A stretch of 63,268 bases of DNA, counting the filler, from Perkinsus olseni (taxonomy: Eukaryota), in assembly GCA_013115125.1 (NCBI GenBank). It is 7 parts of 7 records of this genome, joined end to end, with 100 filler letters (N's around TTAATTAATTAA, not from the genome) between each part and the next. Parts side by side here need not be neighbours in the genome. Positions count along the whole stretch, not along the records: positions 24,075 to 35,972 come from JABANN010000812.1; 6 more parts are not named here. One strand, given 5' to 3'. Under the pieces are notes generated by a model that saw only the letters and a list, made by a program, of their open reading frames with translations, was not told the DNA's origin and made no database searches. Positions 33,101-35,972 of the stretch are shown piece after piece; position 1 is the first letter of the stretch; each line of letters starts with the position of its first letter. The translations under genes were made by a program, and so were the position numbers.

Positions 33101-35972
33101 ATATGTAAATCTATAGAGATTAAATCTATTATTATACTATGGAGTATTATAAGGTATATAATTAATAAATATATATTAAGATTACCAGTTCCTGTTATAT
33201 TATATTTATATAAAGGGCCATATTGTTAGATAAAATATAAATTATATGACTATAGTTAGGTATTAATACTATGATTACCATATACTATATATAAAGTAAA
33301 TATATATATTAAGATTATACATAGAATACCCATATTTAATCCTATAAGTAATAATGATATAATATACTATTAATAAGGTAATCTATAGTCTATGTTATTA
33401 TATTAATTAGATAGATTATGTTATATTAAATAAATATATATTAGATTTATATTATAGACTATAAGGTAATATATATTATTATAAGTATTTATAAATATTA
33501 ATATAAAGATGTGGGTATCTATATAATATTATATATAGTGAGTCTTAATATGTTATTAGTAGTGCATGGCTATAGAGCATTGCTATAAATATATATAATA
33601 TACCATAGTGATAATAATACCTATATCCTAATAAACAATATATTATATAAACATATTAATATAACAATATCAATAGTATAGTATATAGATAGGTAAATAT
33701 TATATATATGTTAGCATTAGGTATGGATAAATTAGTAATATTAGTTAATAAATATGAAATATAATATAATAAATTCTATATATTAGTAAATAATAATAAA
33801 AGAATAGGAATATATTACATTAAATTATCAATAATCATAGGTATATTAGGTATAGTATTATCTTATATAATTAGAGTAGAATTATATAATAGTGGTAATA
33901 GAATTATTAAATATGATAATGTAAATTACTATAATATGGTTATAACATTACATGGTTTATTAATGATATTTTATATTATAATGCCTAGGTTTATATGGTG
34001 GTATACCCCTAATTATATATTACCAATATTAAGTGTAATAACAGATATTGTATTACCAAGAATAAATAATATATCTATAATAATTGTATTAATATCATAT
34101 ATAGTAGTAATAAATAGCATTGTAATAGAATATAATATAGGTACTAGGCTGAACATTATATCCTCCATTATCAATTATAGGTACAGTAATAGTTAATATG
34201 ATATTATATGGTTTAATAATTATTAGGTATATCATCAATAATATCAGCTATTAATTTTATGAATATATTAATAGTTATTGATGGTATAATATATGTATAT
34301 ATATGGAGTATTATTATAACAAGTGTATTATTAATTATTTCATTACCAATATTAAATGGTATATTATTAATGATATTATCTGATATATATTTCAATAGTA
34401 TATATTTCATATTAAATGGAGATGTAGTATTATATCAACACTTATTCTGATATTTCGGTCATCCAGAAGTTTATATATTAATATTACCAGCTTTCGGTAT
34501 AATATCTATAATATTATCTGTATTAAACAATAAAATAATATTTGGTATGAAATCTATGATATTAGCTATTATTATGATATCTATATTAGGTAGTATAGTA
34601 TGAGCTCATCATATATATACAGTAGGATTAGAATTAGATACAAAAATATATTTTAATAACTTAACATTAATAATATCTATACCAACAGGTAATAAAATAT
34701 ATAATTGAATAATATTATATATTGGTTCTTATAACATATTATATAATGGTTATCAATCATTAATATTTAGTATAATGTTTATTATAATATTTATAATAGG
34801 TAGGCATAACAGGTATAATTATAAGTATTGATATCATAGATATTAGGTTTACATGATACATATTATATAGTATCTCATTTCCATTATATATTATCAATTG
34901 GTGCTGTAATATCATTATTAGCTAGGTATATTATTATTAAAAGATATTATTGGTTATTATAATGTAATAATTAAAATAAATAAATACTTTAGGTTTATTA
35001 TTATTCATAAATATAAATATAATATTCACACCTCAATTTATAATTAGGTTTTAATGTAATGCCCCTAGAAGAATATTAGAATATAGTGATAATATCATTG
35101 TATGGAATTTAATATCATCTATAGGTTCAATATCAACAATATTAATATTATTATCCATATACCATAAATATATATATATTTATCTATGGAGACCCTAACA
35201 ATATGATTATTATATTATATAGTATTAAATATTATATTATAAAGGTAACATGATATTATTATAATAATATCTTAGTAATATTAATTATATCTCCATGATA
35301 TAATATTAGGTATAAATCATAATAGGATATTAATACCCCATGGTATAATAAAGATATTAACATTAAGATATTATTATAAGGGTCTATATAGATTACTAAT
35401 GTATATTATGTTATATTACTAATAACTAGATATTTATAAGTAAGATTATAAACTATTAATAATACTAATATCATTATATATAAAGGTTATTATAGATCAC
35501 TATTTATAATTACATAAATGATAATAATATCAATATGGCATAGAGGGTATAAAGGGATATATAAATCTATATTGTATTTTATGCCTATATTTACCATATA
35601 TTATTAGTTATTACTATATAAAGGATATTAGATAAATACATACTATAAGATTATAATATATTATAATACTCTGGAGATAACTATATTCTTATCGATAATA
35701 TCTATTAGTATGGTACCATAATTATATTAGTATATACCCATTCCCTTGTTATTAGGTATATTTACTTATTATTATTATTGGGAATGGGTGGATATCCTTG
35801 TAATTATATTAATAACATATATAAGATAAAGTATACATAGATAATATTAAGATAGTAATAGATTTATACTATAGATTAATACATAGATTTATAATTAAGG
35901 TATACTTTATCTATCTAGTTAGTGTAAATACCCTTATATTTATATATGGTTACATATAGTATATTAACTAAT
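30121..35972. repeat. Right arm of the 5852-bp inverted repeat
   Basis: Mirror of 24075-29926; the ORF track is mirrored exactly. Confidence 0.95.
33765..35198 (+). CDS. cox1: Cytochrome c oxidase subunit 1 with 10 programmed frameshifts and TGA=Trp; start and end approximate
   Basis: [57 protein letters not shown] and MPRRI are all recovered when AGGY is read as Gly (33987, 34146, 34225, 34802, 34845, 34924, 34991, 35046) and CCCCT as Pro (34006, 35062). Confidence 0.97.

Follow-up and report, generated by a model that had tools for sequence, protein, structure and literature searches.

Ten frameshifts in the mitochondrial cox1 of Perkinsus: comparison of a genomic contig with the published recoding system

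To our knowledge, obligatory translational frameshifts are nowhere packed more densely into a gene than in the mitochondria of Perkinsus. Masuda et al. (2010, PMC2952869) described ten shifts in cox1, at eight UAGGY and two CCCCUA sites, in a gene which uses 35 codons and in which UGA is read as Trp. Gornik et al. (2022, PMC9550989) have added four species, in which they report no Cys codons and no editing, and they proposed a model based on unused codons: each of their 75 shift instances lies at a codon that has no other use. The same report describes a flanking consensus of 11–15 nt, which may recruit a factor, and two further motif types in cob (TMGGY and TAAC).

In the yeast Ty1 and Ty3 systems, the shift is made by only part of the ribosomes and once per gene, whereas Perkinsus cox1 requires ten obligatory shifts, +2 events included, in an organelle which imports all its tRNAs. 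The Ty1 site is CUU-AGG-C. Both yeast systems are named by Gornik et al. (PMC9550989), and both resemble the Perkinsus sites in that a rare or undecodable AGG occupies the A site while a Gly-tRNA binds the overlapping GGC/GGY. The cob of Polyrhachis ants and the cox3 of glass sponges, cited in the same paper, are likewise respiratory genes of the mitochondrion with one additional base, and the likeness extends to a rare A-site codon, a P-site wobble pair and a common +1 codon. The animal mitochondrial shifts, however, occur at one or two sites per genome and none is a +2 shift, whereas Perkinsus has 18–19 sites (PMC9550989).

The DNA analysed here (the window) is a stretch of 63,268 nucleotides, filler included, from the Perkinsus olseni assembly GCA_013115125.1, in which positions 24075–35972 come from the contig JABANN010000812.1. 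An earlier note on the window placed cox1 at 33765–35198 on the plus strand and described eight +1 shifts at in-frame AGGY, preceded by U and read as Gly, and two +2 shifts at CCCCU followed by A, with frame arithmetic that is consistent across the ten. Decoding with table 4 (TGA = Trp) from 33765, taking four bases for each in-frame AGG followed by C or T and five for each in-frame CCCCT, gives the same result: one open, stop-free COX1 frame of 473 codons, which begins directly after an in-frame TAA (33762–33764) and runs to the TAA at 35196–35198. The product matches Pfam PF00115 with an E value of 5e-68. The six metal-ligand histidines are intact, as claimed (residues 63, 231, 280, 281, 369 and 371 counted from 33765; motifs TLHG, GHPEVY, WAHH and SHFHY). 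Five of them pair with a His of another COX1 in an alignment, and the sixth is within an N-terminal block that matches COX1 chains, where the alignment shown is the one with the PDB chain 9fq7_4Q only.

TGA stands for Trp at exactly the four places that had been listed (34150–34152, 34448–34450, 34601–34603 and 34706–34708, all on the plus strand), and the chain 9fq7_4Q has Trp at each of them. The first is also Trp in an alignment with a plant-type COX1, and at least three of the four (in GTGW, HLFW and VWAHH) pair with a Trp of another COX1. The frame contains no TGT or TGC, as the note had also seen, and only 34 codons are used; T occupies 40% of the third codon positions, and the DNA around the gene has a GC content of 15–18%. 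The published P. marinus cox1 (PDB 9fq7/9fq8/9fzl, chain 4Q) likewise has ten shifts, UGA read as Trp and no Cys. The lack of an in-frame ATG at the start and an AT content of about 81% are common to both sequences.

The eight +1 sites, all on the plus strand and read as Gly, are cct AGGT at 33987–33990 (residue 75 from 33765, chain residue 72), act AGGC at 34146–34149, directly followed by the TGA (Trp) at 34150, att AGGT at 34225–34228, ggt AGGC at 34802–34805, att AGGT at 34845–34848, gct AGGT at 34924–34927, ttt AGGT at 34991–34994 and att AGGT at 35046–35049. The two +2 sites, on the same strand and read as Pro, are ata CCCCT a at 34006–34010 (chain residue 78, the next aligned block starting from chain residue 79–80) and atg CCCCT a at 35062–35066 (chain residue 427). 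By an inferred numbering offset, the site at 34924 would be G384 of Gornik et al., the sole site reported missing in P. chesapeaki (PMC9550989).

Chain 9fq7_4Q has 459 residues, of which the decoded product shares 458, in alignment blocks that cover chain residues 1–78, 80–426 and 427–458. In the chain, each of the eight AGGY sites corresponds to a Gly and each of the two CCCCT sites to a Pro. The sole mismatch is the last chain residue, which is F where the window codes Y (35160–35162). The name of the chain links it to a preprint on the P. marinus supercomplex (10.1101/2024.05.25.595893), in which the shifts were fitted independently to the density of a 2.1 Å cryo-EM map; the protein-level check across the shift sites which the earlier note had proposed is therefore in print. 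That the shifts are real at the protein level is close to certain, and there can hardly be any doubt that the stretch is the mitochondrial cox1 of the oyster parasite Perkinsus marinus or of a near-identical strain, with an unedited mRNA from which ten obligatory forward frameshifts give one functional COX1. The observation is thus real but already known: every part of the earlier reading is in print (Masuda 2010, PMC2952869; Gornik 2022, PMC9550989; the 2024 cryo-EM preprint), and the note had itself presented the recoding as published and not new.

The support from the solved protein chain spans 33774–35162. Beyond this part, an in-frame CCC occurs at 35193, and cox1 probably does not end functionally with the TAA at 35196. 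The interval 33765–35198 stands as an open frame, but its 3′ limit probably does not stand as a gene end.

The extra bases are kept, with no gaps, in every public contig that was aligned (runs X8, X13, X17 and X5). X8 covers the ten sites with no difference from the window, and X13, from a sister organism, also covers all ten; both runs are RNA by guess only. X17, a true RNA (metatranscriptome) run, covers three of the ten sites at low depth, and X5, a DNA run, covers four in its main contig. In the hopping frame, each of the 23 differences seen in X13 affects the last base of a codon and is silent, as do and are seven of the eight in X17; no single fixed frame makes more than 15 of the 23 silent. 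Two of the X13 changes are T/C swaps at the fourth base of AGGY (C at the 34225 site, T at the 34802 site). One X5 contig has A instead of G at 34993, which makes AGA of that site; its depth is 68x versus 3248x, it has nine differences in 81 nt and flanks unlike those of the window, and it is probably a nuclear copy or comes from another organism. A 1179-nt contig of X13 joins 33980 to 34347. Since only pieces of 23–24 nt support this joint, it was treated as a chimera or a repeat match, and rejected as a deletion form of the gene.

RNA editing could strip out the extra bases ahead of translation, and it is frequent in the mitochondria of dinoflagellates, as the introduction of Gornik et al. 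states (PMC9550989). The comparison of cDNA with DNA, also proposed in the earlier note, has however been published: Masuda et al. found cDNA identical to genomic DNA (PMC2952869), and Gornik et al. report no DNA-to-RNA difference in RNA-seq or in cDNA clones (PMC9550989). The X17 metatranscriptome keeps the bases at the three sites that it covers, and X8, if it is RNA, at ten of ten. An editing signal would also need to spare seven out-of-phase TAGGY of the gene. Editing is already refuted in print, and its probability is minute.

It could also be proposed that the extra bases are errors of sequencing or assembly, or that the sequence is a decayed nuclear copy of cox1; nuclear cox1-like fragments are present in P. 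marinus (Masuda 2010, PMC2952869), and the contig looks mis-assembled. This explanation is already refuted by the protein match, the recoded product being equal to the solved chain. Several runs, moreover, have contigs with the identical sequence, at word depths of thousands, all the differences in the sister organism are silent, and the surrounding DNA is low in GC. An explanation of this kind has next to no chance of being right.

The contig is a perfect palindrome with arms of 5.85 kb. The left arm (24075–29926) reaches the contig end, the right arm (30121–35972) carries the cox1 described above, and the two are separated by a non-palindromic, AT-rich centre of 194 nt (29927–30120). The contig therefore contains a second cox1 on the minus strand (24849–26282), letter-identical and with the same ten sites (position x corresponds to 60047 − x). 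Gornik et al. describe single-copy genes on a circular-mapping molecule of 40.9 kb (PMC9550989), whereas this contig has two inverted copies of cox1. The palindrome and the duplicated gene are probably an assembly artefact. The palindromic contig with its second cox1, and the TAA at 35196 as a probably non-functional end, are new here, but minor.

As a control for chance, the decoding rule was started at each position of either strand of the four AT-rich contigs, which gives only five open stretches of at least 90 aa: the two copies of cox1 (473 aa, ten events each), one stretch of 98 aa without any event, and two mirrored stretches of 91 aa which sit at the 3′ ends of cox1. No cob or cox3 was found in the window, the rule-based decoding of these four contigs giving cox1 only. 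Cytochrome b and COX3 have no Pfam match among the 70 longest of the 110 stop-to-stop ORFs of at least 40 aa in contigs 5–7, a scan which gave only three unrelated matches below the Pfam cut-offs. ARAGORN finds no tRNA gene in the window, and Rfam gives no match at gathering thresholds over its whole length, so that no rRNA fragment is recognised there. A metagenome scan for other perkinsid cox1 yielded 11 loci; at 31–35% identity, these are remote cox1 genes rather than relatives. As the window lacks cob and cox3, the codon statistics given below cover cox1 alone.

AGG occurs 19 times in the cox1 coding sequence. Eight copies are in phase, and all of them are shift sites; the other 11 start at codon position 3. 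Similarly, seven of the 15 TAGGY are out of phase and are decoded normally. It is therefore the in-frame codon, and not the string, that acts as the trigger. CCC is confined to the two CCCCT, and between 33774 and 35162 there is no in-frame AGG or CCC other than at the ten sites. Neither is used as an ordinary codon in cox1, which agrees with a model of the hungry-codon kind, in which the tRNA for the A-site codon is scarce or absent.

No slippery heptamer of the type X XXY YYZ is present at the ten sites, and folding of the 60 nt downstream of them shows no stimulatory RNA structure relative to the gene background (mean energy of −7.1 versus −6.1 kcal/mol, sd 2.5). Classical viral-type frameshifting was rejected on these grounds, and Masuda et al. 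(PMC2952869) and Gornik et al. (PMC9550989) likewise state that neither element is present. The P-site codons at the +1 sites are CCT, ACT, ATT (three times), GGT, GCT and TTT. Re-pairing after a +1 slip is possible for one of the eight only (TTT to TTA, which keeps two pairs), and P-site slippage of the Ty1 type was therefore rejected. Ty3 shifts without re-pairing in the P site, and Perkinsus cox1 seems to be alike in this respect; a Ty3-like subtype without slippage is possible.

We infer that stalling at AGG or CCC, followed by rebinding, is the most likely mechanism, a preference that is real but not strong. An in-frame AGG or CCC of the unedited cox1 mRNA would enter the A site of the mitoribosome, which would stall because no imported tRNA reads this codon. 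The next decodable overlapping codon would then be taken by an ordinary imported tRNA: at AGGY, tRNA-Gly would bind GGY after one base; at CCCCU, a move of one base would only bring up another unused CCC, so that tRNA-Pro would bind CCU, which is used elsewhere in the gene, after two bases. The P-site peptidyl-tRNA would not slip. Several observations count against this model. Ten shifts per protein demand a near-complete efficiency, and the known hungry-codon sites fall short of it (Masuda 2010, PMC2952869). GGC is the landing codon at two sites, yet cox1 nowhere uses it as an ordinary triplet, so that the wording "next used codon" does not strictly fit. Lastly, T precedes AGG at eight of eight sites (P ~6e-4, given the 40% of T at third codon positions) and the base that follows is always a pyrimidine, never a purine, which stalling alone does not explain; both CCCCT are followed by A.

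The bias for T before AGG, the flanking consensus in print (PMC9550989) and the problem of efficiency would be accounted for if the missing tRNA alone were insufficient, and if an agent such as a mitoribosomal protein specific to Perkinsus, a small RNA or a stretch of rRNA recognised the surroundings of UAGGY/CCCCUA and drove the shift. The mitoribosome co-migrates with numerous proteins that are uncharacterised (PMC13623125). However, the normal reading of seven of the 15 TAGGY means that no string-level signal acts alone, there is no stable structure downstream of the sites, and no such factor is known. Assistance by a factor is therefore rather unlikely, although it is the more serious of the remaining competitors of stall-and-rebind.

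The earlier note spoke of "4- and 5-base decoding". The term is valid as book-keeping; what has been published, however, speaks more for frameshifting of the ribosome at codons that cannot be decoded. Taken literally, the term would mean that dedicated tRNAs are imported whose enlarged anticodon loops decode AGGY (Gly) and CCCCU (Pro) in one step, which is one of the two models proposed by Masuda et al. (PMC2952869). The suppressor and engineered 4-/5-base tRNAs which they discuss would yield the same book-keeping. The efficiency that is needed would be provided, and the fourth base, a pyrimidine at eight of eight sites with only T/C variation among relatives, is what G–Y wobble allows; but a tRNA-Gly with G34 on GGY accounts equally well for the pyrimidine rule. 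LOTTE-seq of two species identified 50 canonical tRNAs, none of which has an extended anticodon, in contrast to the suppressor systems, and the TMGGY and TAAC motifs of cob imply that several special tRNAs would be required (Gornik 2022, PMC9550989). According to Masuda et al., the use of a tRNA that reads four or five bases is not known from any natural organelle (PMC2952869). We regard this model as improbable. Equally doubtful is the broader proposal that, instead of passive stalling, there is either true extended-codon decoding or an obligatory shift for which some lineage-specific element of the fragmented mitoribosome, sensing U-AGG-Y/CCCC-U-A in the A site, is responsible. The T before all eight AGG, the pyrimidine after them, the absence of GGC as a plain triplet and the ten error-free shifts are compatible with it and, if it were true, it would be the first natural organellar reading of four or five bases at near-complete efficiency.

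The window adds no new biology to the frameshift question, the gene being that of the literature and of the solved structure. Its practical value concerns annotation: standard gene callers fragment cox1, or read AGG as Arg and continue into nonsense, and a database protein (P0002) shows such a mis-annotation. The ten jumps of each protein are made without error by a ribosome whose rRNA is in fragments. As to their mechanism, the caution of the earlier note still holds, a 2026 paper presenting the mitoribosome of Toxoplasma as the only myzozoan one available (PMC13623125).

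The cox1 gene sits in the fourth contig of the window (24075-35972). Three-frame translation with table 4 gives COX1-like blocks that switch between frames. A decoder that reads TGA as Trp and takes four bases at each in-frame AGG[CT] and five at each in-frame CCCCT yields, from 33765, a product of 473 residues that stops at the TAA at 35196. On the plus strand it makes +1 shifts at 33987, 34146, 34225, 34802, 34845, 34924, 34991 and 35046, all T-AGG-Y, and +2 shifts at 34006 and 35062, both CCCCT-A. The earlier note had claimed ten shifts for 33765..35198 (eight at AGGY preceded by U, two at CCCCU-A), and the decoder agrees in number and kind. 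It also agrees with the note on the four TGA=Trp codons (34150, 34448, 34601 and 34706), on the lack of Cys codons in the decoded frame and on the six metal-ligand histidines, all present in the product. With each base of either strand of the four AT-rich contigs taken as a start, the same rules gave nothing comparable besides cox1. A plain ORF (33765..34196) passes through the first two shifts because +1 followed by +2 sums to three bases; that the product there is GLYGGIP, rather than RFIWWYT, emerges by homology or from the protein itself only.

A solved protein confirms the reading. The block between both CCCCT sites, translated with code 4 and AGGY as Gly (P0001, 348 aa), matches Pfam COX1 and agrees at every residue with positions 80-426 of PDB chain 9fq7_4Q, the COX1 of the Perkinsus marinus respiratory supercomplex (chain 4Q is also found in entries 9fq8 and 9fzl). 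This chain begins at the Phe codon 33774. The N-terminal block, whose last residue is the Pro at the first CCCCT, is identical to its residues 1-78, and the C-terminal block, from the Pro at the second CCCCT, to residues 427-458; at residue 459 the chain has F where the window encodes Y. Gly therefore stands at 8/8 AGGY sites of the chain, and Pro at 2/2 CCCCT sites. The preprint on the II2-III2-IV2 supercomplex counts chain 4Q among those that need +1 or +2 shifts to fit the 2.1 Å map; for COX1 it gives a total of ten, of which two are +2 (10.1101/2024.05.25.595893). P0002, a JGI metagenome protein, is 97% identical to the window product; its gene caller took the homologous AGG as Arg, which results in the same out-of-frame tail as in the window ORF.

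Masuda et al. (2010, PMC2952869) described ten UAGGY/CCCCUA shifts, UGA as Trp, cDNA identical to genomic DNA, and the lack of start and stop codons. Gornik et al. (2022, PMC9550989) reported 75 shifts in four mitochondrial genomes, every one at an otherwise unused codon, with no editing and no Cys. The frameshifts of cox1 are already known, as the earlier note had said with reference to these two papers, and have been validated in print at the RNA and protein levels. What the note observed is fully confirmed, and its interpretation is supported.

Four sequencing runs, available as contigs and not as raw reads, were compared with the window cox1. The main contig of the DNA run X5 matches 33701-34403 exactly. 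In X8 (whose organism label is that of the likely source, and which is RNA by guess only) a single contig of 1430 nt covers 33748-35157 with no difference and no gap. X13, with another organism label and also RNA by guess, covers ten of ten sites in three contigs without gaps, and X17, a true oyster metatranscriptome of low depth, covers 33901-34163 (three shift sites, no gaps) and 34309-34478. None of the four runs shows an insertion or deletion relative to cox1. The shifts occur, and the extra bases are present in DNA and in RNA-library contigs; that they are an artefact has a negligible probability. As counter-evidence, a divergent X5 contig of low depth (68x), whose 81 nt at 34950-35030 differ at 9 positions (about 89% identity), has A for G at 34993, so that AGA replaces AGG at the 34991 shift site, and its flanks are foreign and GC-richer. 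It may represent mitochondrial DNA copied to the nucleus, or come from another organism; Masuda et al. described nuclear cox1-like fragments (PMC2952869). Separately, a 1179-nt X13 contig (depth 1049) shares with cox1 (33980-34347) only two short stretches, each of 23-24 nt and separated by 289 other letters; this match, of chimeric or repeat type, is unexplained.

The substitutions in cox1 track the hopping frame. All 23 differences in X13 and 7 of the 8 in X17 are silent and fall on the last base of the decoding unit, while any single fixed frame makes at most 15 of the 23 X13 differences silent. Two X13 differences (34228 and 34805) are T/C exchanges in the fourth position of an AGGY. Masuda et al. 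found a like selection pattern for P. olseni and P. honshuensis (PMC2952869), so the present result repeats theirs on other data.

The solved chain ends at codon 35160-35162, two residues past 35157, where the X8 contig stops, directly joined to an adapter-like loose end. The sequence after this point is presumably Illumina adapter, and the stop is a weak hint of the RNA end. Masuda et al. and Gornik et al. both describe mRNA without a stop codon (PMC2952869, PMC9550989), the latter for polyadenylated cob and cox1. Because of these three observations, the last 11 codons of the ORF in the earlier note, with an in-frame CCC (35193), its only one besides the CCCCT sites, and the TAA (35196), are probably untranslated. 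The interval of the earlier note and the full-length mRNA of Masuda et al. both measure 1434 nt, an agreement in length alone.

The cox1 contig is palindromic: 24075-29926 is the exact reverse complement of 30121-35972 (arms of 5,852 nt), and the two enclose an AT-rich, native-looking centre of 194 nt. It therefore holds a second, inverted cox1 on the minus strand at 24849-26282, identical and with the same ten sites under rule-based decoding. Each arm reaches the contig end, and since the arms stop exactly there the palindrome is probably a fold-back assembly artefact. The genes of P. marinus mitochondrial DNA are single-copy according to Gornik et al. (PMC9550989). The Southern smear below 10 kb in Masuda et al. 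(PMC2952869) would to some extent allow for genuine heterogeneous forms. A real inverted-repeat molecule is the less likely alternative.

The seven contigs of the 63,268-base window are separated by N44-TTAATTAATTAA-N44. Three have about 50% GC and near-equal lengths (1-7926, 8027-15950 and 16051-23974; 7926, 7924 and 7924 nt); their genes are of eukaryotic nuclear type (Menorin domain, aspartyl protease, BT1 transporter), and these contigs have no relation to the mitochondrial ones alongside. The other four have 15-18% GC (24075-35972, 36073-46348, 46449-55251 and 55352-63268). The last three, 27 kb in total, have no recognisable protein genes, tRNAs or Rfam matches, and share no sequence with one another or with the cox1 contig. 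The window lacks cob and cox3.

P0004, a 300-aa COX1 fragment from a 1196-nt JGI metagenome contig, is 65% identical to the recoded COX1 over 294 residues without gaps. It runs in one uninterrupted frame over five shift positions (G, G, G, A, G) and has two Cys. In a FastTree analysis of 62 of 121 proteins (P0001, P0002, P0004 and every second other match) it clusters with the window COX1 and P0002. These three share an odd, AT-driven composition flagged by the tool, and P0004 is also 68% identical to P0030, another database protein. As a weak lead from sequence comparison, P0004 might represent the closest relative that lacks frameshifts, or might only resemble one through its AT-rich composition. 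A search of the available literature library for mitochondrial gene data of perkinsozoans outside the genus Perkinsus listed no paper.

Codons and motifs were counted in 33774-35162. Of the 19 AGG, 8 lie in phase and 11 begin at codon position 3; seven of the 15 TAGGY are decoded ordinarily as xTA GGY, the other eight being the shift sites; and CCC is confined to the two CCCCT sites. The trigger is therefore the in-frame codon and not the string. This frame dependence argues for an event in the A site and against any RNA-level process, including RNA editing, whose probability is negligible. The T that precedes all eight AGG is unlikely from composition (P ~6e-4). The folding energy of the 60 nt 3' of the sites is no different from the gene background. 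Slippage in the P site, of the Ty1 type, was rejected because among the codons ahead of AGG (CCT, ACT, ATT three times, GGT, GCT and TTT) only TTT keeps two pairs after a +1 slip.

The gene uses 34 codons and leaves 30 unused, AGG and CCC being two of the latter. A step of one base at the +2 sites meets CCC once more, and a step of two bases reaches CCT, which occurs elsewhere in the gene. Two sites land on GGC, which cox1 never uses as a plain triplet; this is a small misfit to the wording "next used codon", although one G34 tRNA-Gly would serve GGT as well as GGC.

The earlier note considered the mechanism unresolved, and a 2026 complexome paper still treats the frameshifting as unexplained and calls the Toxoplasma mitoribosome the sole one available for myzozoans (PMC13623125). 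Masuda et al. proposed two models, stalling or special tRNAs (PMC2952869). Gornik et al. reported no mitochondrial tRNA genes, and their LOTTE-seq no extended-anticodon tRNA (PMC9550989); true extended-codon tRNAs seem quite improbable here, and shifting assisted by a factor, if somewhat less so, also unlikely. The reading that we moderately favour is that the mitoribosome would stall at an in-frame AGG or CCC that it cannot decode, after which an ordinary Gly- or Pro-tRNA would bind out of frame, the P site not slipping. We infer that the corresponding tRNAs are absent, and any account of how the ribosome reaches near-complete efficiency is of the same kind.
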